Part shown: in pieces, positions 5,598-17,860 of the stretch | How positions within the stretch are numbered: position 1 is the first letter of the stretch | Layout: the number at the start of each line of letters is the position of its first letter | Origin: Minisyncoccota bacterium | Lineage (GTDB): Bacteria > Patescibacteriota > Minisyncoccia > Phycocordibacterales > UBA2100 | Length of the DNA stretch: 64,000 bases | Direction of reading: 5' to 3' | NCBI GenBank assembly: GCA_035559235.1 | Contig: DATMBM010000010.1 | Location: 20,257 to 84,256 of the forward strand | Translations under genes and position numbers: made by a program | Notes under the pieces: model-generated | The model's input: only the letters and a program-made list of their open reading frames with translations | Told to the model about the DNA's origin: nothing | The model's database searches: none

Positions 5598-6152
5598 ATG
5601 GCGCGATTGCTCGCTAGTGTTGCTGTGCTTGTGAGCACGGCGCTTCTCGGGGCGTATGTATACCATTCCACGTCGTCGTCCACATTCTTGACGACACGTG
5701 ACGCAAAGGAGGGTGCGACTATGCCGACTCTTGATGAAAGATTGCCTCCGCAGGGGTGGCTTTTGTATACGAATGAGAGGTATGGATTTTCACTTTTTTT
5801 TCCCGAGTATCTCTCGGTAAAAGAAAGAGATCACGGACAAAACTCAATGACAATCACTTTTGAGAATGTGGAGAGAGGAGAGGGATTTGAGATTTTCGTG
5901 GTGCCTTACATAGATGCGCACGTCAGTGAAGCGCGGTTTCGACAGGACGTCCCTTCGGGAGTGCGAGAAAACCCCGTTGACGTTATGGTTCACAACGTTC
6001 CTGCTGTCGCTTTTTTCAGCAAACATGACATTGGGGAAACCGCGGAGGTGTGGTTTGTCTATCGGGGTCATCTGTATGAAGTGGCAACGCTCAAGGAGCA
6101 CTCCGTATGGCTTGGCAACATTTTGCAAAGCTGGCAGTTTACGCAATACTGA
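5598..6152 (+). CDS. hypothetical exported protein
   Basis: Start chosen at MARLLASVAVLVSTALLGAYV (signal/anchor), 1 nt after the upstream stop. Track ORF 5538 overlaps the previous gene. No homology recognised. Confidence 0.45.
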   Translation: MARLLASVAVLVSTALLGAYVYHSTSSSTFLTTRDAKEGATMPTLDERLPPQGWLLYTNERYGFSLFFPEYLSVKERDHGQNSMTITFENVERGEGFEIFVVPYIDAHVSEARFRQDVPSGVRENPVDVMVHNVPAVAFFSKHDIGETAEVWFVYRGHLYEVATLKEHSVWLGNILQSWQFTQY

Positions 6153-6354
6153 CCACAACCGATGATATTCTGGAGATAAAGGAGTAGGTGGGATGAGAAG
6201 AAAAGTCCCACCGATGACGCGTTGCCAAAGCAGCATTTGAGTTCTTACGCAATCGGATCGTACGATGCTGGTGCCGCTTACAGCGCGCGCGGCGCGTGTG
6301 AAGTCGATCATTGAGTTAGCTAAAATAGATTCGAGCATGTATTAATAGAGACTT

Positions 6355-6672
6355 ATGAAGGCACTCAAGGTGTTTGTTACGGTTCCTCGGGAGCATGCGG
6401 ATGCTGTCCGCACGGCGATTGGAGACGCGGGCGGCGGACAGATTGGAAACTACTCGTTTTGTTCATTTAGTGTTGTCGGCATTGGGCGATTCAAACCTGA
6501 ACGCGGAGCGCATCCGTCCATCGGGGAGGTTGGCTCACTCGTGGCAGTTGAAGAGGAAAAAATAGAGTTTGTCTGTGATCCGGCGCTGCTCGAAGTGGTT
6601 GTCGAAGCGATACGTTCAGTTCATCCGTACGAAGAACCCGCGATAGATGCAATTTCCGTCGAAATATTCTAG
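6355..6672 (+). CDS. standalone PII-like domain protein related to the Nif3/YqfO insert domain
   Basis: 105 aa. IGNYSFCSF..GIGRFKPERGAHPSIGEVG...EFVCDPALLEVVVEAIRSVHPYEEPAIDA closely resembles, from memory, the ferredoxin-like insert of Bacillus YqfO/NIF3 proteins (GNYSHCTF...NPYIGE...HPYEEPAYD). Confidence 0.5.
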   Translation: MKALKVFVTVPREHADAVRTAIGDAGGGQIGNYSFCSFSVVGIGRFKPERGAHPSIGEVGSLVAVEEEKIEFVCDPALLEVVVEAIRSVHPYEEPAIDAISVEIF

Positions 6673-6760: not shown

Positions 6761-7666
6761 ATGCAAAAAGCAGATATTGAAAAGAAGATTATCGAGATAG
6801 AAGCGGCCATGGCCGCGCCTGATTTCTGGGCCGATAAGGACAAAGCTCAGATCGCGCTCAAGGAATACCAAGACCTCAAGCAAGCGCTTGCCGGAGCAGA
6901 CGGCTACGACAAAGGAGACGCCATCGTCTCAATTGTCTCCGGCGCCGGTGGCGACGACGCGGAAGATTTCTCCCGCATGTTGCTTGAGATGTACCAGAAA
7001 TATGCCGCGTCGCGAGGCTGGAAAGTGTCGATGCTCTCATCAAATCAGAATTCCATGGGTGGTTTTCGCAGCGTTTCGTTCGATGTCGCGGGCGCAGGTT
7101 CCTACGGCGCGCTCAGGCGCGAGGCGGGCGTGCATCGCTTGGTGCGCATGTCGCCCTTTAACGCCGCGGGAAAGCGCCAAACATCTTTTTCGCTCGTTGA
7201 AGTTTTGCCGCGGCTTCCCGATGTCGGAGAGGCGCACATCCCCGAAAGTGAACTCGAAGTGACGGTTGCGCGCTCCGGCGGTCCGGGCGGTCAGAATGTG
7301 AACAAGCGGGATACTGCGGTGCGCATGACGCACAAGCCCTCCGGCCTCACGGTGCACGTGACGAGTGAACGCAGTCAAGCGCAAAACAGGGAGAAAGCAA
7401 TAGAGATGCTTCGCGGCAAACTGTTCCAAATGAAGCAGGAGGCGCAAGAACGCGAATCGCGCGGTCTCTCCGCCGGCGCCTCTACTAAAATCGAATGGGG
7501 CAGCCAGATCCGTTCGTATGTCCTTCATCCGTACCAGCTCGTCAAAGATCATCGTACCGATCATGAGCGTCGTGACGTCGACCGGGTGCTCGAAGGGGAT
7601 ATCCAATCGTTTATCGACGCGGCAGCCGCGTTGACAGAGCGTACGGTGGGGTATAATGGCCACTAA
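6761..7666 (+). CDS. prfB: peptide chain release factor 2 (short form, no programmed frameshift)
   Basis: GGQ motif (SGGPGGQNVNK) and the RF2-specific SPF tripeptide (RMSPFNAAGKRQTSF). Single uninterrupted 301-aa ORF. Domain 1 is much shorter than in E. coli RF2. The ATG lies 4 nt after the tRNA-Thr 3' end. Confidence 0.85.
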   Translation: MQKADIEKKIIEIEAAMAAPDFWADKDKAQIALKEYQDLKQALAGADGYDKGDAIVSIVSGAGGDDAEDFSRMLLEMYQKYAASRGWKVSMLSSNQNSMGGFRSVSFDVAGAGSYGALRREAGVHRLVRMSPFNAAGKRQTSFSLVEVLPRLPDVGEAHIPESELEVTVARSGGPGGQNVNKRDTAVRMTHKPSGLTVHVTSERSQAQNREKAIEMLRGKLFQMKQEAQERESRGLSAGASTKIEWGSQIRSYVLHPYQLVKDHRTDHERRDVDRVLEGDIQSFIDAAAALTERTVGYNGH

Positions 7667-7714: not shown

Positions 7715-8395
7715 ATGATTTATTTCGATCGCGTGACGAAGCTCTACAACGGCGGCCCACCAGCCGTTGAAGACGTCACGCTTTCGATCGATCCCGGCGA
7801 ATTCGTCTCGATCGTGGGGCACAGCGGCGCGGGTAAGACGACACTCTTGAAAATGCTCTTCGCGGAGATATTCCCGACCGAAGGCAGCGTCTATTTCGGT
7901 TCGCGCGAAATCCCATCGCTCACCGCGCGGGAACTTTTGGAGCTGCGTCGCAATATCGGTACGATTTTCCAGGATTTCCGCCTCTTGCCGACGAAGACCG
8001 TGTACGAAAACGTTGCGTTCGCGATGGAAGTGTCCGGCAAGGACGACGAGGACATTCAGGCCGATGTGCCGCACGTGCTCGAGCTTGTCGGGCTCAGCGA
8101 CAAGATGTGGAATTTCCCGAAGCAGTTGAGCGGCGGCGAGCAGCAGCGCGTCGCTATCGCGCGCGCGATCGTCAACCAGCCCGATGTGCTGATCGCCGAC
8201 GAACCGACGGGGAACCTCGATCCGGTAAACGCGCTCGACGTCGTCGAAATCCTCAAGAAGATTAATAATTTGGGCACGACTGTGCTCCTCACGACGCATA
8301 ATAAAACGGTCGTCGATTCCGTCGGCCGGCGCGTGGTGACGCTCGAAAACGGGCGCGTCGTGCGCGATGTGAAGGAGGGAAAATATCATCTGTAA
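7715..8395 (+). CDS. ftsE: cell division ATP-binding protein FtsE
   Basis: ABC ATPase with Walker A GHSGAGKTT, signature LSGGEQQRV and Walker B VLIADEPTGNLD. Typical FtsE start MIYFDRVTKLY, and ftsX lies immediately downstream. Confidence 0.85.
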   Translation: MIYFDRVTKLYNGGPPAVEDVTLSIDPGEFVSIVGHSGAGKTTLLKMLFAEIFPTEGSVYFGSREIPSLTARELLELRRNIGTIFQDFRLLPTKTVYENVAFAMEVSGKDDEDIQADVPHVLELVGLSDKMWNFPKQLSGGEQQRVAIARAIVNQPDVLIADEPTGNLDPVNALDVVEILKKINNLGTTVLLTTHNKTVVDSVGRRVVTLENGRVVRDVKEGKYHL

Positions 8396-8400
8396 ACACT

Positions 8401-9324
8401 ATGGCACTGTGGACCACTACCAAACGAATTGCGCGCTACGGCCTGATCGGCTTTATCCGCAACGGTTTCGTCTCGCTCGCGGCGATCGTGATCATGACGA
8501 TCACACTGTTCGTCTCCGGCGTGCTCCTTATTAGCGGCGCCGCCCTACAGGCAACGCTTGAACAGCTCACGAGTAAGGTGGATGTGAACGTGTACTTCAC
8601 GACGACGGCGACCGAAGCGCAGGTTCTCGCAATACAGCGCGAATTGGAGCCGCTGCCGGAAGTCGCGCAGGTGACCTATACGTCGCGCGAGCAAGCGCTC
8701 GCCGAATTCCGCGAACGTCACAAGACCGACGCGTCGACGATCCGGGCCCTCGAGCAGCTCTCTGACAATCCGCTCGGCGCATCGCTCGCGATCCGCGCAA
8801 AAGAGACGTCCCAGTACGAATCGATCGCGCAATTCCTCGCCGCGAAGCAGCAGACTCCGGACGGCGCCATCATCAGCAAGGTGAATTTCTACCAAAACCG
8901 GACCGCGATTGAGCGCCTCACCTCGATCATCCAAACGGCACGTACGATTAGCGCCGTCGTCGCCCTCTTTCTGGCTGGGGCATCCGTCCTTATCGCGTTC
9001 AACACGATCCGCCTTGCGATTTACACGGCGCGCGACGAAATCGGCGTCATGAATCTCGTTGGCGCTTCGCATTGGTACGTTCGCGGGCCGTTTGTTATTG
9101 CCGGCATCCTCTACGGGGTTATCTCCGGCATCATCGTGCTCGCCGTCCTGTATCCACTTACCGCGTGGATCGGTCCCGCGTCGGAGCGCTTCTTCGGGAC
9201 CTTCAACGTATTCGACTATTACACGGGGAATTTCGCGTTCCTTTTCCTCGCGATCATGGGAACCGGCATCATTTTAGGCGCAATTTCGAGCTTTTTGGCG
9301 GTCAGACGCTATCTCCACACCTAA
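8401..9324 (+). CDS. ftsX: cell division permease-like protein FtsX
   Basis: FtsX topology: TM1, a large extracytoplasmic loop, then three C-terminal TMs. Its position right after ftsE supports the call. Confidence 0.8.
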   Translation: MALWTTTKRIARYGLIGFIRNGFVSLAAIVIMTITLFVSGVLLISGAALQATLEQLTSKVDVNVYFTTTATEAQVLAIQRELEPLPEVAQVTYTSREQALAEFRERHKTDASTIRALEQLSDNPLGASLAIRAKETSQYESIAQFLAAKQQTPDGAIISKVNFYQNRTAIERLTSIIQTARTISAVVALFLAGASVLIAFNTIRLAIYTARDEIGVMNLVGASHWYVRGPFVIAGILYGVISGIIVLAVLYPLTAWIGPASERFFGTFNVFDYYTGNFAFLFLAIMGTGIILGAISSFLAVRRYLHT

Positions 9325-12206: not shown

Positions 12207-12264
12207 AACTGCCGGATCGCCCGTCTCGCTGAGGCGAGCCGAGGCGGATCTAATGGTAGGACAT
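12207..12264 (+). repeat. truncated 5' copy of tRNA-Gln (26 nt of identity split by a 29-nt hairpin-containing insert); direct repeat of the intact tRNA-Gln 5' end
   Basis: 12207-12219 AACTGCCGGATCG and 12249-12264 TCTAATGGTAGGACAT are identical to 12507-12535 of the intact tRNA-Gln. The intervening 12220-12248 carries a CTCGC-TGAG-GCGAG hairpin. Confidence 0.55.
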
Positions 12265-12508
12265 GTATTTCGTCTACGTGCTAAAATCCGAACGCTCTCG
12301 AAAATCATACGTCGGTCATACCGACAATCTTGAGAAACGGTTGCTGGAGCACAACTTTGGCAAGAATACATCGACGAAACCATTTGCGCCGTGGGTGCGC
12401 GTGTATCACGAGGAATACAAAAGTCGAGAGGCGGCGGTGAAAAGAGAGAAATATTTGAAAAGTCGCGGCGATAGAAGATTCTTTAAAAACGTGGTATTTA
12501 GTACATAA
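12263..12508 (+). CDS. small GIY-YIG nuclease family protein
   Basis: MYFVYVLKS...YVGHTDNLEKRLLEHN is a GIY-YIG signature. 81 aa. The ATG overlaps the end of the tRNA-like fragment, and the stop lies 1 nt before the intact tRNA-Gln. Confidence 0.8.
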   Translation: MYFVYVLKSERSRKSYVGHTDNLEKRLLEHNFGKNTSTKPFAPWVRVYHEEYKSREAAVKREKYLKSRGDRRFFKNVVFST

Positions 12509-12509
12509 C

Positions 12510-12583
12510 TGCCGGATCGTCTAATGGTAGGACATCGCCCTCTGGAGGCGAGTATCTTGGTTCGAGTCCAAGTCCGGCAACCA
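12510..12583 (+). tRNA. tRNA-Gln (anticodon CTG), CCA encoded
   Basis: Acceptor TGCCGGA/TCCGGCA; 3-bp D-stem GTC-TAATGGTAG-GAC; anticodon stem TCGCC/GGCGA with loop CTCTGGA (anticodon CTG); T-arm CTTGG-TTCGAGT-CCAAG; discriminator A then CCA. Confidence 0.8.
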
Positions 12584-12695: not shown

Positions 12696-13640
12696 ATGAA
12701 AATCATGAAGAGTTATTACCGCGTGATGCTCGGTCGAAAGAGCGCCTACGCAGATGAGGCCTATAAAGGTAATTTCATTGCGGCCGGATTCATAAAAGAT
12801 AAAGATTTGACCGATCACTTGGTGGAGAATTGGCGGGACTTCAACCGCGAATTTGTACCTCTGTTTATTGAGCAGAATCCTGAGAAAACGAAAATCTCCG
12901 CAGGGCTCGCCTGCGGCATGTTGTGGACGGTTGCCAAGGGTATGCAGATTGGCGACATTGCTTTGTGTCCAGATGGTAAAGGTAACTACTATGTCGGCGA
13001 AGTGACCGGGAATTACGAGTATCACAAAGGAGAACCACTCCCACACCGACGCCCCGTTCGGTGGTTTACAAAAACCATTGCACGCGAAGAGATGAGTGAA
13101 GCGCTCCGGAATTCAACAGGTTCGATCGCTACCGTGAGCAACGTAACAAAGTATGCAAGTGAAATTGAAACGCTCCTTTCCGGAAACGCACCACTCACTA
13201 TCACCACTACCGATGAGACCATAGAAGACCCAACTATTTTTGGACTCGAAAAACACCTCGAAGATTTCCTGGTCTCAAATTGGAAGTCAACCGAGCTCGG
13301 GAAAAACTACGATATCTATGAGGAGGACGATGAAATAGTTGGACAACAATACCCAAGTGACACTGGCCCTATAGACATTCTTGCTATCAGTAAAGATAAG
13401 AAAACGATCCTTGTTGTCGAACTCAAAAAAGGACGTGTGAGCGACGTGGTCGTCGGCCAGTGCCAACGATACATGGGCTACGTGAAGGAAGAGCTTGCAG
13501 AAGATAACCAGGAAGTGCGGGGAGTCATCATTGGGTTTGAAGATGATGTTCGCATCCGCCGTGCGCTCTCGGTCACGAATAACATTGATTTCTATACGTA
13601 TAAGGTCAGCTTCAAGCTCGAGAAAATGAATGGGAAGTAG
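12696..13640 (+). CDS. two-domain nuclease: unknown N-terminal (possibly PUA/EVE-like) domain fused to a C-terminal NucS/DUF91-type PD-(D/E)xK nuclease domain
   Basis: C-terminal PIDILAISKDKKTILVVELKKGRVSDVVVGQCQRYMGYV matches the NucS C-terminal nuclease motif (iDllavD...lvviElKr....v.Ql.rY). The N-terminal ~180 aa is unrecognised; it has a GDIAL...YYVGEV beta-rich pattern. An AGGA element lies upstream, and the alternative start is at 12705. Confidence 0.6.
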   Translation: MKIMKSYYRVMLGRKSAYADEAYKGNFIAAGFIKDKDLTDHLVENWRDFNREFVPLFIEQNPEKTKISAGLACGMLWTVAKGMQIGDIALCPDGKGNYYVGEVTGNYEYHKGEPLPHRRPVRWFTKTIAREEMSEALRNSTGSIATVSNVTKYASEIETLLSGNAPLTITTTDETIEDPTIFGLEKHLEDFLVSNWKSTELGKNYDIYEEDDEIVGQQYPSDTGPIDILAISKDKKTILVVELKKGRVSDVVVGQCQRYMGYVKEELAEDNQEVRGVIIGFEDDVRIRRALSVTNNIDFYTYKVSFKLEKMNGK

Positions 13641-13647
13641 GACACAT

Positions 13648-14085
13648 ATGCAATTCGAATATCCCGAAGATCGGGAATTCTTCGCCAATCTTCTTACCGA
13701 TGGAGATCAGAAGAAGCTCTCGAAATTTAAAGACTACTTTGATTTCAGATCACCCAAAGTAAAACGTGAGGAGTATAACCTCATGCGTGACGCGCTATTC
13801 CAAAAAATCATTAAACGTGACGGATATGTCTGTAGACTTACCATTTCCCCGAGATGTTTGCGCGACCGCGAATTGCAAATTGACCACGTCATCCCGCTCT
13901 CTACCAACATAATCAACAAAACCACCCGTCGAATGAAGGCCCTGCCAGGAAAGAAGGTTGCCGCACAGAGCTTTGGCTCAAATTATCTAGGGAACCTCAT
14001 ATTTGCCTGTCGAGAGTGCAACAGAGAGAAATGGCACCGCTTCTTGGATCGGGAGACCCTGCAGAGGGTACTCAAGAGCATATAG
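13648..14085 (+). CDS. HNH endonuclease
   Basis: CRL...C...DHVIPLS...N...NL...CRECNREKWH is an HNH/zinc-finger signature. AGGA lies 5 nt upstream of the ATG. Starts 7 nt after the stop of the previous gene. Confidence 0.7.
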   Translation: MQFEYPEDREFFANLLTDGDQKKLSKFKDYFDFRSPKVKREEYNLMRDALFQKIIKRDGYVCRLTISPRCLRDRELQIDHVIPLSTNIINKTTRRMKALPGKKVAAQSFGSNYLGNLIFACRECNREKWHRFLDRETLQRVLKSI

Positions 14086-14130: not shown

Positions 14131-15924
14131 ATGAAGAAACAGGACTATATCACTACGGCTGACCTGGCAAAGATGCTCGGGGTAAGCCGCGTCTCAGCTC
14201 TCAAGTGGATGAAGAAAGCAGAAAAAGAGCAAGGAATAAAGCTTGTAGAGCTTGGCAGGGGCTTTGTGATAGAGAAGGACTCCCTTCCCAAAGAGCTCAA
14301 GGAGCGGCTTGGAAAGGAGCGCAAGGAGGCCACAGAGAAGGCCATTCGCATAGGCACAAGCCATCATAAGGATATTGATTTCGAGAAAGAGCTTTGGAAC
14401 GCAGCTGATAAGCTCCGGGGAAATATAGACGCGTCCGAGTACAAGCACGTTGTTCTCGGGCTTCTCTTTTTAAAGTATGTCTCTGACGCTTTCTACATGC
14501 GACGTGCGGAGCTGGAACAACGGCTCGCTGATCCAAAGGATAAAGAATTCTATATTGCGGATGCGAAAAGCCGCTCGGTGATTTTGGAGAATCGCGATTC
14601 CTACCGCAGTGCCGGTGTCTTCTACATACCTGAAAAGGCACGATGGGAACACTTGCGTGAGCACGCATCACACTCTGACATTGGGAAATACATAGACGAC
14701 GCGATGACTGCGGTTGAGGAAGAGAACGCAAAACAGCTCAAGGGCGTCTTGCCGAAGATGTATACACGCACGCCGCTTGAGCGTCACGTACTTGGTGAAC
14801 TTGTGAATATTTTCTCTCGTATAAAGTTCAATCACGACATCGACCATGAGAAGGACATGCTCGGGCGCGTGTACGAATACTTTCTCGGACAGTTCGCTTC
14901 GGCAGAGGGCAAACGTGGTGGAGAGTTCTTCAGCCCTCGTTCGCTCGTCCGTCTTCTCATTGAAGTGTTGGAACCATACGAGAACGCACGAATTTTTGAT
15001 CCCGCGGCTGGTAGCGGCGGGATGTTCGTGCAAGCAAGCGCATTTCTGAAAGCTCGCGGCAAAGACGCCGCGCACCTCGGTGTATTTGGCCAAGAGAGCA
15101 ACACCACTACCTGGCGGCTCTGCAAGATGAACCTCGCGATTCGCGGCATCTTCGGGCAGATAGAACAGGGCAACACTTACTATGAGGACAAGTTCTCGGA
15201 CTTACGGGCAGACTTTGTGGCGGCAAATCCGCCGTTTAATGCTGAGTGGGATCCGAAGCGCTTGAGCGACAACGACCCACGCCTCAAGTACGGCACGCCA
15301 CCGTCCTCGAACGCGAACTTTATGTGGATTCAGCATTTCATTCACCATCTCGCTCCAAGCGGCATGGCGGGGTTCATTATGGCAAACGGTGCGCTTGCAG
15401 TCGGAGGTCGCGAAGGAGAGATTCGTAAAAATATTGTTGAGGCGGACCTAGTTGATGTCATCATCGCTTGTCCGCCGAAGCTCTTCTACAACGTCGCGCT
15501 TCCCGTGTCACTCTGGTTTGTGGCGAAGAACAAGAAGGGCGACCGCTTCCGTAACCGTACAGGAGAAACGCTCTTCATAGACGCGCGAGAGCAGTTTGAA
15601 CAAATCTCTCGCAAACAGGTCGTCTTTAATGACGAGCACATCAAGAAAATCACTGATGCTGTACGCGCATGGCGTGGTGAGAAAGGCGCGTCTGAGTACA
15701 AAGACATTCCCGGCTTTTGCAAAGCGGCAAAGCTAGAAGAAATCGCCAAAGCGGGCTATGTGCTCACACCAGGTCGCTATGTCGGCCTCGCCGACGAGGA
15801 GGACGATGGCGTGCCGTTTGAGGAGAAAATGCAAAAGCTCTCGGCAGAGCTCAAAGATGTGTTCAAAAAGGGCGGCGAGCTAGAAGCGCAGATCTTGGCG
15901 AATCTAAAGAAAATCAGTATATGA
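14131..15924 (+). CDS. hsdM: type I restriction-modification N6-adenine DNA methyltransferase subunit M, with an N-terminal HTH extension
   Basis: HsdM N-domain (LWNAADKLRGNIDASEYKHVVLGLLFLKYVSD), AdoMet motif I (FDPAAGSGGM) and motif IV (NPPFN). The first ~80 aa (ITTADLAKMLGVSRVSALKWMKK) looks like an Xis/MerR-type HTH. Confidence 0.9.
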   Translation: MKKQDYITTADLAKMLGVSRVSALKWMKKAEKEQGIKLVELGRGFVIEKDSLPKELKERLGKERKEATEKAIRIGTSHHKDIDFEKELWNAADKLRGNIDASEYKHVVLGLLFLKYVSDAFYMRRAELEQRLADPKDKEFYIADAKSRSVILENRDSYRSAGVFYIPEKARWEHLREHASHSDIGKYIDDAMTAVEEENAKQLKGVLPKMYTRTPLERHVLGELVNIFSRIKFNHDIDHEKDMLGRVYEYFLGQFASAEGKRGGEFFSPRSLVRLLIEVLEPYENARIFDPAAGSGGMFVQASAFLKARGKDAAHLGVFGQESNTTTWRLCKMNLAIRGIFGQIEQGNTYYEDKFSDLRADFVAANPPFNAEWDPKRLSDNDPRLKYGTPPSSNANFMWIQHFIHHLAPSGMAGFIMANGALAVGGREGEIRKNIVEADLVDVIIACPPKLFYNVALPVSLWFVAKNKKGDRFRNRTGETLFIDAREQFEQISRKQVVFNDEHIKKITDAVRAWRGEKGASEYKDIPGFCKAAKLEEIAKAGYVLTPGRYVGLADEEDDGVPFEEKMQKLSAELKDVFKKGGELEAQILANLKKISI

Positions 15925-16628
15925 GCAAGAAAGACGAATACATAAAAAGACTTGAGAGTATATTGGAAACCTACAGGGATTTCCAACGTAAAGCAAAATA
16001 TAATGACCTCAGTGATTTACCAAAAGAAGATAGAAAGTCCCTGGTGACAACTGCGCAAGCCTTCATTTTTCGGACCACGAGCGAAGAATCATTCTATGCG
16101 CGAGAATTAAAAAGAATCATTGCAGAAAAACCTGCGCTTCACTCACACACATCTGAAGTCATGGGAATAGTAGCGAGCTTGAAGAATGATCTCGAAAGCG
16201 GGGCTTTAGAGCTAGATGCAGATCAGAGGGAAAGCCTCGCTGATCCAGCTGGGGTAAATATTTTAGACCTTAAACTCAAACTTGGAGTCCTTGAATTTAT
16301 TGTAGCGGCGCTTTTTGCCCTGTGCTTTACGCTTATCTTCGCCATCATCAAAATACTCGGTCTCGAAATTTACTGGTCGGCACTGTGGCCATATCTACTA
16401 ATGTTCTTTGGCCTTGCGTTTTCTGGGATGTACATCGTACTGCCGACAATCCAGATATCTAGAAAAGTGGGCCCGAACGTAAAGGATATATACAACGAAT
16501 TTATATTAGAGTTCAGTGGAAAAAGTAAACTCGGGAAAATAAAAACAGTAGGTTCCATTCTCTTGGGTATTGCAGCGGTGATTTCGTTACTTGTGTCCCT
16601 TCTCCCTTACCTTGATAAATATTTATGA
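15921..16628 (+). CDS. hypothetical protein inserted between hsdM and hsdS: soluble N-terminal ~120-aa domain plus C-terminal 4-TM domain
   Basis: ATGA overlaps at both ends (15921-15924 and 16625-16628). AT-rich codon usage. Hydrophobic helices at FIVAALFALCFTLIFAIIKIL, YWSALWPYLLMFFGLAF, IVLPTI and SILLGIAAVISLLVSLL. No family recognised. Confidence 0.55.
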   Translation: MSKKDEYIKRLESILETYRDFQRKAKYNDLSDLPKEDRKSLVTTAQAFIFRTTSEESFYARELKRIIAEKPALHSHTSEVMGIVASLKNDLESGALELDADQRESLADPAGVNILDLKLKLGVLEFIVAALFALCFTLIFAIIKILGLEIYWSALWPYLLMFFGLAFSGMYIVLPTIQISRKVGPNVKDIYNEFILEFSGKSKLGKIKTVGSILLGIAAVISLLVSLLPYLDKYL

Positions 16629-17860
16629 CCACAAAAACCAAAACAACTTGGCGGACGGTGAGGTTGAGGGATGTTATACAGAACCCTCTTGGTGGGGACT
16701 GGGGCAAAGAATTACCTGACCCTCAATTTTCTGAAGAAGTTTACGCTATACGCGGAACTGATTTCTCGGCGTTGGAAACCGGAGACTTTTCCAAGGTAAA
16801 AACGCGCTTTATCAAAAAAACTAGCCTTGATAAGCGCCGTCTGGTTGAGGGTGACATAGTGATGGAAATTTCTGGTGGCAGTAAAGGTCAGCCGGTTGGT
16901 CGATCATTTATTATAACCTCGGGTTTGCTTACGAAGGCAGGGAAACCTCTTGTTTACTCGAATTTTTGTAGACGCCTTCGTGTATCAGACGACAATGATC
17001 CACGCTATCTTTTCTATTTCTTACAGAAGTTCTATTCTTCCCCAGAAGTACTAAGCTTCCAGACTCAATCAACTGGAATTAGTAATTTTCATTTCACCGC
17101 TTTTGTTGAGTATAAAGAGATTTTTGTGCCCAGGCTTGACGTACAGGTAGAAATTGGAAGAATTCTGGCGGCATTTGACGAGAAGATTGAGAACAACAAC
17201 CGCATCATCAAGACGCTTGAAGAAATGGCGCAGGCGATTTTTAAGAAGCAATTCGACGTTCCCGTCGATGATCTACCGGAAGGGTGGGAGGTGAAAAAAC
17301 TTGGAGAGTTAGGAAAAGTCGTCACAGGGAAAACTCCTAGTACAAAAGACAAAGAGAACTTTGGTACAGATTATCCTTTTATCACCATACCCGATCTACA
17401 GAATGGAGTATTCGTTATTAAGACAGAGAGATTTTTATCAGATCGTGGAGCGAATACTATGCGCGCCTCCAAACTCCCCGCAGGGGCAATTTGTGTGAGC
17501 TGCATCGCGACTATTGGTTTGGTGGGAATTGTTACACGAGAGAGCTTTACAAACCAGCAAATCAACAGCATTATTCCGCGCTCCAAAATTCTTCAACCTT
17601 TCATCTTCTTACTCTTGCAAAAAATGAAGGGCAGTCTTCAATCCCATGCTTCTGGAGGTACGGCTGCTCCAATCATCAGCAAAAGTGCTTTTGAGAAGAT
17701 TGAGATAGTTTTCCCAACGGAGAAAGTACTGAAGGATTTTTATGAAGTAGTAAATCCGATGTTTGACAAAGTTTTGGCAATTCTAGAAGAGAACCAAAAA
17801 CTTGCCGCTACGCGCGACCTCCTCTTGCCGCGTCTAATGAGTGGAAAAATACGAGTATGA
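16625..17860 (+). CDS. hsdS: type I restriction-modification specificity subunit S (two target-recognition domains)
   Basis: Conserved HsdS central and C-terminal coiled-coil spacers (RILAAFDEKIENNNRIIKTLEEMAQAIFKKQF; VLAILEENQKLAATRDLLLPRLMSGKI) flank two variable TRDs. Confidence 0.85.
   Translation: MTTKTKTTWRTVRLRDVIQNPLGGDWGKELPDPQFSEEVYAIRGTDFSALETGDFSKVKTRFIKKTSLDKRRLVEGDIVMEISGGSKGQPVGRSFIITSGLLTKAGKPLVYSNFCRRLRVSDDNDPRYLFYFLQKFYSSPEVLSFQTQSTGISNFHFTAFVEYKEIFVPRLDVQVEIGRILAAFDEKIENNNRIIKTLEEMAQAIFKKQFDVPVDDLPEGWEVKKLGELGKVVTGKTPSTKDKENFGTDYPFITIPDLQNGVFVIKTERFLSDRGANTMRASKLPAGAICVSCIATIGLVGIVTRESFTNQQINSIIPRSKILQPFIFLLLQKMKGSLQSHASGGTAAPIISKSAFEKIEIVFPTEKVLKDFYEVVNPMFDKVLAILEENQKLAATRDLLLPRLMSGKIRV

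Follow-up and report, generated by a model that had tools for sequence, protein, structure and literature searches.

Genes embedded in Type I restriction-modification (R-M), BREX, DISARM, and Hma systems are often independent defences, and more than 50% of those embedded in Type I R-M systems are unexplained ("guilt by embedding", Payne et al., 10.1101/2024.01.29.577857). A worked example of an embedded defence is TgvAB, which is found in a Type I R-M system of V. cholerae (PMC11411939). Two described systems come closest to the case analyzed here, namely gene X (orf235), which is located between hsdM and hsdS in a 64,000-nt stretch of DNA from a Minisyncoccota bacterium (assembly GCA_035559235.1, contig DATMBM010000010.1, positions 20,257 to 84,256; the whole stretch is called the window below). 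The first is Ronin of E. coli ECOR55, in which the transmembrane (TM) toxin RonA of 61 amino acids (aa) is lethal alone but is neutralized by HsdMS; it is triggered by Ocr, ArdA, and Aop1, and the cells then stop growing but do not lyse (Silas et al., bioRxiv 10.1101/2023.04.06.535777). The second is PrrC/EcoprrI, in which the R-M complex holds a suicide effector latent until an anti-restriction peptide of the phage appears (10.1101/2024.01.29.577857; 10.1101/2023.04.06.535777).

The comparison with these systems revealed similarities as well as differences. In both Ronin and the operon of X, hsdS and hsdM are closely accompanied by a gene for a small membrane protein. An earlier note on this DNA had likened X to abortive-infection effectors that depolarize the membrane upon failure of the R-M system; this guess corresponds to the mechanism of Ronin, and a membrane effector tied to HsdMS has a published precedent in RonA. 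However, RonA, compared here by its description, has one TM helix and no soluble domain, whereas the 235 aa of X form a helical bundle and three TM helices. In addition, Ronin has no hsdR and acts as a decoy, whereas the operon of X contains a full-length hsdR, as do the related operons at the loci L001, L005, and L022. Furthermore, the host of Ronin is E. coli, while X is found in a tiny groundwater-type bacterium of the Patescibacteria. X shares with PrrC (and RloC) the location inside an hsd operon, and PrrC has a regulatory N-terminal and an effector C-terminal part, the same division of labor that is proposed for X below. However, PrrC combines an ABC-ATPase-type N-terminal domain with a HEPN-type RNase, neither of which was found in X with Pfam, NCBIfam, PADLOC, or the structural model, and the target of the PrrC effector, an anticodon nuclease, is tRNA, in contrast to the membrane proposed for X. 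Because hsdR is present and an ATPase or HEPN domain is missing, X is not a member of the Ronin or PrrC families.

Functional statements about X rest on its sequence, its predicted structure, and its neighbourhood. Taken together, these suggest that X is built from two undescribed domains and that it is a defence gene with a putative membrane effector embedded in an R-M operon. The structure was predicted with AlphaFold2 from a 39-sequence alignment, with a mean predicted local distance difference test (pLDDT) score of 89.3. The N-domain is predicted to fold into four helices (residues 3-24, 35-52, 58-69, and 73-93) that are followed by a poorly ordered, low-confidence linker (residues 94-113). 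For the C-domain, Kyte-Doolittle hydropathy and AlphaFold2 agree on three TM helices (residues 114/124-146, 152-178/183, and 203/210-234). A short amphipathic helix (residues 187-199) is situated within a loop that bears seven Lys and Arg residues; the conserved K/R-rich loop of the C-domain is ISRKVGPNVKDIYNEFILEFSGKSKLGKIKT. The loop between the first and the second TM helix does not contain any Lys or Arg, and therefore, following the positive-inside rule, the N-domain and the loop of residues 179-209 are predicted to be cytoplasmic. With this topology, only about five residues and a four-residue tail would be exposed outside. The earlier note had described a soluble N-terminal part and four C-terminal TM helices. 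The soluble part is retained, as a four-helix bundle within about 113 aa, but hydropathy and the model yielded three TM helices and a cytoplasmic loop helix instead of four TM helices.

A HMMER profile search of 1.84 billion representatives identified 92 proteins, which split cleanly into an N-domain set and a C-domain set. The C-domain set comprises about 20 clusters. Six of these are full-length X-like proteins (P0001-P0006), and about ten are free-standing three-TM modules of about 120 aa (P0007, P0008, P0010, P0015, P0016, P0022, P0035, P0037, P0061, and P0074). In two further cases, the C-domain is preceded by other N-termini (P0009 and P0032), and that of P0032 is Gly-rich. The named members of this set stem from metagenome-assembled genomes (MAGs) of Patescibacteria. 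The C-domain was encountered nearly exclusively in Patescibacteria-type metagenomes, to which full-length proteins are confined to date, with about six clusters among the 1.84 billion representatives.

The N-domain set is larger, with about 75 clusters, and its C-terminal partners were typed with Pfam. The partners were HEPN_RiboL-PSP (10 members), HEPN (7 members), DUF4145 (5 members), Hypoth_Ymh (3 members), REase_DpnII-MboI (2 members), the CAP12/Pycsar TIR domain (CAP12-PCTIR_TIR, 1 member), and Schlafen (SLFN_AlbA_2, 1 member). A single TM helix forms the C-terminus of about ten further members, in several cases behind a Gly-rich linker, and about 25 members have a tail of about 120 aa with the motif IRNxAAHG. 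Short proteins with the N-domain only were mostly truncated genes of the type N-domain plus HEPN. The N-domain is also encoded on plasmids of Acinetobacter (RefSeq annotation "DUF4145 domain-containing") and on a Hymenobacter plasmid (hypothetical protein). P0020, an N-domain plus TIR protein, matched the PADLOC candidate PDC-S35 over its full length (3.8e-68). As its partners show, the N-domain is an unnamed module of recognized or candidate defence and toxin proteins. As its relatives carry HEPN/DUF4145, TIR, DpnII-MboI, or Schlafen domains at this position, the three-TM module of X occupies the "effector slot".

X differs from these relatives in its C-terminal module. The HEPN/DUF4145 fusions (about 220 aa; for example, WP_179989177.1 from Acinetobacter towneri pGX3-1) have an N-domain that is homologous to that of X, with i-Evalues of 6e-15 to 1e-28. 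However, their C-terminal module is a soluble RNase with the motif RNxAAHG, and that of PDC-S35 is a TIR domain, whereas X has the three-TM module instead. The Rx4-6H motif of the HEPN/DUF4145 superfamily was sought in X and found to be absent. When the profile of the N-domain was compared with that of the HEPN tail using hhalign, the probability was 28%, and the alignment spanned only overlapping linker residues. X also had no PADLOC match to PDC-S35, which is defined by an N-domain and a TIR domain; the N-domain alone is shared, via the profile link to P0020. The effectors 2TM and 4TM of CBASS, PycTM of Pycsar, and phage holins follow the same logic as proposed for X, i.e., a small multi-TM module, interchangeable with a nuclease or a TIR domain, is the presumed membrane killer. 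However, they have no sequence or fold relation to X. X lacks a sensor domain for nucleotide signals, and its activation would have to pass through the fused four-helix bundle.

The earlier note had not recognized the family of X, and remote homology searches gave the same picture. No significant match was obtained in Pfam, NCBIfam, PADLOC, PHROGs, or the PDB; a match to DUF4661 with an E-value of 0.015 was rejected as an artefact of the hydrophobic segments. PDB sequence profiles of both domains yielded only noise, and a Foldseek search of the model against the PDB retrieved nothing below E = 1; fold matches to four-helix bundles carry no information. A word-indexed search of 5.8 billion proteins retrieved X itself and only two relatives; the protein identical to X is annotated as "hypothetical protein" in a Candidatus Paceibacterota MAG. 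Pattern scans with the full-length alignment did not find relatives in GTDB genomes, JGI metagenomes, or IMG/VR. The C-domain scan of metagenomes again recovered only the loci of P0004 and P0005, and C-domain scans of viral collections were negative. A Pfam similarity to Phage_holin_3_6 had E-values of 0.013-0.26, far under the gathering score, and PHROGs, PADLOC, and the phage and viral collections contributed no match. With tblastn, neither X nor a free-standing C-domain protein nor an N-domain plus HEPN protein had a match in the INPHARED phages, and therefore, an origin from a phage holin is unsupported. X did not match the PLSDB plasmids either.

A nucleotide comparison of the window with L001 showed 76% identity through hsdM up to position 15931 and 78% identity from position 16278, i.e., within the C-domain, onward, whereas no nucleotide similarity was found across 15932-16277. 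The N-domains of the X orthologs are only 15-19% identical at the amino acid level, and three subtypes can be discerned: "DLSDLP" (window), "THTPNPPNVIGFPTL" (L001), and "KNECKNEI...YRR" (L002 and L005). Each of the three subtypes is also found fused to HEPN or single-TM tails. The N-terminal module is thus swapped as a cassette, like the target-recognition domains of hsdS alongside. Such swapping fits a part that is engaged in an arms race, and not a part that docks onto a conserved enzyme surface.

In contrast, the C-domain is highly conserved. The C-terminal 116 codons of X and its L001 ortholog encode sequences with 87% amino acid identity, with 0.07 nonsynonymous differences per nonsynonymous site (pN) and 0.80 synonymous differences per synonymous site (pS), the synonymous sites being saturated. 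The four-nucleotide overlaps described below are retained at both ends of X in L001 and L002, and the overlap between X and hsdS is retained in L005. X is a real gene, as shown by the selection on its C-domain, the confident fold, the conserved position in the operon, and the conserved start and stop overlaps, and its C-domain is under purifying selection.

The junctions of X agree with the earlier description of a 235-aa open reading frame (ORF) that overlaps both neighbours by four nucleotides, in the ORF listing as well as in the sequence. The stop codon TGA of hsdM lies within the ATGA that starts X (15921-15924, agtatATGAgcaag), and the stop codon of X and the start codon of hsdS share a second ATGA (16625-16628, tatttATGAccaca). 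X is thus a membrane protein gene that is situated inside an intact Type I R-M operon, with bona fide hsdM and hsdS genes and a full-length hsdR, and that is translationally coupled to its neighbours. X is an embedded gene in the sense of Payne et al., because it has core genes of a complete system on both sides, shares their orientation, and does not belong to the mobilome. The idea that ATGA coupling is specific to X had to be rejected, because hsdS and the following DUF3800 gene are joined by an equal overlap at 17857; this type of coupling runs through the whole hsdM-X-hsdS-DUF3800 block. The GC content of X is 41.2% (41.9% at third codon positions, GC3), compared to 51.9% (GC3 60.2%) for hsdM, and X is therefore more AT-rich than hsdM, as had been noticed. 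However, hsdS (43.3% GC) and the DUF3800 gene (43.6% GC) are equally AT-rich, and so are the embedded genes of L001, L005, and L014, which weakens the view that the composition marks X as foreign to the operon. In addition, a coding sequence rich in TM helices is T-rich anyway. In summary, neither coupling nor composition sets X apart in the operon, because hsdS and the DUF3800 gene match it in both respects.

Next to the properties of the protein, the genomic contexts of the relatives are informative, although the sample was small and many matches were on short contigs. Full-length relatives were found in the arrangements hsdM-X-hsdS-orf93-hsdR (P0002, L001), hsdM-X-hsdS (P0003, L002), and hsdM-X-hsdS-OLD nuclease-DUF3800-hsdR (P0004, L005 and L022). 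Thus, X recurs inside hsd operons, the point on which the earlier note had asked for a survey: four of the five full-length lineages with context are located at hsdM-X-hsdS. That note had regarded homologs mostly outside R-M loci and with a defined unrelated function as evidence to the contrary, and no homolog with an unrelated defined function was found. HsdM is 74-80% and HsdR 78-81% identical between the window and the related hsdM-X-hsdS operons, and X is a stable component of one operon lineage, as judged from these comparisons.

N-domain proteins with other C-termini are found at similar positions. P0107 (21 contigs, L014-L017) and P0099 (Minisyncoccia, L019), both composed of the N-domain, a Gly-rich linker, and one TM helix, are encoded directly after an hsdM whose product is 68% and 43% identical, respectively, to that of the window. 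P0013 (20 contigs, L010-L013), an N-domain plus HEPN protein, is encoded directly upstream of hsdS in an operon with an HsdM that is only 25% identical. In distant Type I systems, N-domain proteins are thus repeatedly encoded in the slot after hsdM or before hsdS, most faithfully in their membrane-bound forms. The single-TM proteins represent a sister architecture (P0099, P0100, P0105, P0107, P0108, and P0017; for example, L014 at about 5754-6362 and L019 at 7001-7618), in which the N-domain is followed by a GGxGGxGGRGGDGG run, the conserved stretch "PH(R/K)QYW", and a single TM helix at the C-terminus. In Patescibacteria operons, another unannotated gene and then hsdS follow this architecture. 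The HEPN fusions are mostly solitary, which argues against a module that must dock to an R-M system; the comparison of contexts indicates that the N-domain needs no R-M neighbour.

We tentatively favour, as the most likely of several explanations, that X is a self-contained sensor-effector abortive-infection protein that is embedded in and co-expressed with the Type I R-M operon. The N-terminal module would be the sensing or regulatory part, which would keep X quiet until a phage-derived cue appears. The three-TM module would be the effector, which upon activation would oligomerize or rearrange and compromise the cytoplasmic membrane. The resulting depolarization or leakage would stop the infected cell before phage release. 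Embedding would ensure co-transfer and co-expression with the R-M system, and X would serve as a second line once restriction has been evaded. Roughly half of the confidence that we place in this proposal extends to a guard version, in which HsdM and HsdS would hold X inactive and an anti-restriction protein would release it, in the manner of Ronin and PrrC. A much more far-reaching version seems unlikely to us. It would regard the N-domain as a widespread sensor or adaptor of a single-chain defence family with swappable HEPN, TIR, restriction endonuclease-fold, Schlafen, one-TM, and three-TM effectors. The membrane versions of the Patescibacteria would guard a functional Type I R-M system and depolarize the cell when an anti-restriction protein disables HsdM/HsdS, similar to Ronin but with HsdR retained, and N-domain subtypes would be exchanged rapidly, in step with the diversity of phage anti-restriction proteins.

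Several observations weigh against the sensor-effector proposal. Membrane toxicity is deduced solely from the architectural position of the three-TM module, which could equally be an anchor, and this module has no detectable relation to a known pore-former, holin, or TM effector of a defence system, the best Pfam matches being far below threshold. An obligate docking to HsdM is disfavoured by the swapping of the N-domains and by the HEPN relatives that are solitary. P0005 (17 contigs) is not part of a Type I operon and has a Tsp45I-type Type II R-M system and a Fic/RhuM gene as neighbours. Solitary genes outside R-M loci encode the N-domain plus HEPN proteins P0095, P0114, and P0019 as well as the plasmid proteins mentioned above, and as this is true for most HEPN relatives, the link to R-M might be co-location rather than functional coupling. 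Furthermore, the high similarity of HsdM and HsdR implies that the four hsdM-X-hsdS operons with a three-TM protein represent one lineage and not four independent associations. As a side observation, a 34-aa ORF (MQYSVVNYKTVKENYDFRIDSEYYQQKIEGVIEK) is present directly upstream of P0005 (L006, 7884-7988; P0005 at 8001-8729). Judged by eye, its product is similar to the N-terminal beginning of an HsdS-type protein, and the ORF may be the remnant of a former hsd context.

The main rival explanation, which we regard as rather unlikely, is that X is a membrane tether without toxicity, which would capture the methyltransferase or the restriction complex with its N-domain and hold it at the inner membrane by means of its TM module. 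A tether could place the R-M system near sites of DNA entry, which would be relevant to episymbiotic Patescibacteria that rely on DNA uptake. With the exception of P0005, all membrane-anchored N-domain proteins with usable context directly follow hsdM, i.e., the three-TM forms as well as P0107 and P0099, whereas the soluble HEPN forms are mostly solitary, which favours a tether. A flexible Gly-rich linker with one TM helix looks like an anchor, and the tight coupling to hsdM by ATGA or TAAnATG would suit a partner in a complex. An association of EcoKI with the cytoplasmic membrane has been reported, which is also in line with a tether. However, three N-domain subtypes with 15-19% identity next to HsdM proteins with 74-80% identity would not be expected for docking onto a conserved surface, and in genes without an R-M system nearby, this N-domain is joined to HEPN, TIR, and restriction endonuclease domains. 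Moreover, the conservation of the three-TM module and its loop goes far beyond the needs of a passive anchor, and the module also exists as a free-standing protein of about 120 aa.

An improbable alternative is that X is a non-suicidal protein of the superinfection-exclusion type, which would block phage DNA entry or another step at the membrane and would reside in the operon only for co-transfer and co-expression. A small multi-TM protein within a defence island would match this function, a second, unrelated membrane protein is encoded after hsdR, and genes embedded in R-M systems are commonly independent defences, such as TgvAB (PMC11411939). However, the variable N-domain and the conserved loop are predicted to be cytoplasmic, and the few residues outside would offer little surface to a phage. 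In addition, the N-domain is common to intracellular nuclease and TIR effectors, which points to intracellular sensing.

It is very improbable that X is an operon regulator, which would control the assembly or activity of HsdR during establishment (restriction alleviation), or an addiction toxin, which would kill segregants and thereby stabilize the island. Its location between hsdM and hsdS, upstream of hsdR, and its translational coupling are compatible with such roles. Overexpressed RonA is lethal and neutralized by HsdMS, and thus formally resembles a toxin-antitoxin pair, and a conserved stem-loop sets hsdM-X-hsdS-DUF3800 apart from hsdR, which hints at differential expression. However, X has no DNA-binding or protease-adaptor signature, and a housekeeping factor that regulates a conserved enzyme would not be expected to have a hypervariable N-domain. 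An X-like gene is missing from many closely related Type I operons, which also argues against this explanation. Finally, a spurious or decaying ORF without function, for which nothing speaks beyond the annotation as "hypothetical protein" in the source MAG, is refuted by the purifying selection, fold, position, and overlaps described above and has a negligible probability.

The features of the operon and its surroundings are compiled in the table.

Table. Gene X, its two domains, and the neighbouring genes in the window
Feature	Position	Strand	Basis
Gene X (orf235), two-module membrane protein	15921..16628	+	ATG start, 235 aa, ORF listing
N-domain of X, predicted cytoplasmic four-helix bundle and linker	15921..16259 (aa 1-113, bundle to ~105)	+	AlphaFold2
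C-domain of X, three predicted TM helices and K/R-rich cytoplasmic loop	16260..16625 (aa 114-235)	+	Hydropathy, AlphaFold2
PDC-S02 PD-(D/E)XK protein, 314 aa	12696-13640	+	PADLOC PDC-S02 3.1e-161, nearly end to end; Pfam of this gene and the next: NucS_C, YhcG_C, HNH
HNH protein, 151 aa, overlapping the PDC-S02 gene	13630-14085	+	Pfam
hsdM, Type I methyltransferase	14131..15924	+	Pfam N6_Mtase 5e-104, HsdM_N 3.4e-28; PADLOC MTase_I 1e-160
hsdS, specificity subunit	16625..17860	+	Pfam Methylase_S 1.2e-40; PADLOC Specificity_I 2.4e-78
DUF3800 gene between hsdS and hsdR	17857..18585	+	Pfam DUF3800 8.2e-12; PADLOC DUF3800_VII 2.7e-6
hsdR, full-length restriction subunit	18719..21757	+	Pfam HSDR_N, SWI2_SNF2, T1R_D3-like, T1RH-like_C over residues 4-1000; PADLOC REase_I 1.7e-258
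Second membrane protein, 175 aa	21763..22290	+	ORF, several hydrophobic segments

The gene order is hsdM-X-hsdS-DUF3800-hsdR, with all genes on the plus strand. HsdM has an N-terminal extension of about 80 aa (14131-14370) with a weak match to HTH_17 (E 0.0088). It is shared by the HsdM orthologs of L001, L005, and L022, with alignments that begin at residue 1, and may be a built-in autoregulator. In L005 and L022, the slot of the DUF3800 gene is filled by a homolog with 42% identity, and a gene for an OLD-family ATPase-TOPRIM protein is embedded there as well. The second membrane protein is unrelated to X, and its gene starts 6 nt past the stop codon of hsdR. It had no match above noise in Pfam, PADLOC, NCBIfam, or PHROGs, and L001 has no homolog at the equivalent position.

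The only sizeable intergenic gap of the operon separates the DUF3800 gene from hsdR (18586-18718, core 18603-18656). It folds into a GC-rich branched hairpin with a minimum free energy of -43.5 kcal/mol (z -2.3). In a comparison of two sequences, the gap of L005 (7036-7092) was found to keep the outer stem, with five pairs changed on both sides. The hairpin had no match in Rfam. It may be an attenuator, a terminator, or a processing site that separates the expression of hsdR from that of hsdM-X-hsdS-DUF3800.

The operon is part of a low-GC island of about 12.2-22.3 kb, with 42-52% GC compared to about 57% outside, and its left edge is at a tRNA-Gln(CTG) gene (12510-12583). A perfect direct repeat of 16 nt, TCTAATGGTAGGACAT, is present at 12249-12264 and at 12520-12535, and the second copy is within tRNA-Gln. 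The two copies bracket an ORF for an 81-aa GIY-YIG protein (12263-12508). The arrangement suggests a small GIY-YIG element that inserted at or into the tRNA gene with target duplication, beside a tRNA-associated defence island. As a candidate att site, a copy of the 3′ end of tRNA-Gln was sought at the far end of the island, and none was found. With the overlapping PDC-S02 and HNH gene pair upstream of hsdM, the island thus stacks three or more candidate defences around its Type I system.

To our knowledge, Ronin is the only studied membrane suicide effector that is wired into Type I restriction, and phage defence in the Patescibacteria, also known as CPR, has hardly been studied experimentally. 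If the sensor-effector proposal is true, X would be a second, structurally unrelated membrane suicide effector wired into Type I restriction, besides Ronin. As its operon keeps the nuclease, the combination of R-M and an abortive back-up in one transcription unit would be a general design and not a curiosity of E. coli. If X is instead a tether, it would be the first dedicated membrane-localization subunit of a Type I enzyme. The N-domain is worthy of a name, as it links HEPN, TIR, nuclease, and membrane effectors. It provides a handle on further single-gene defences and is a concrete candidate for the part with which such proteins may sense infection.

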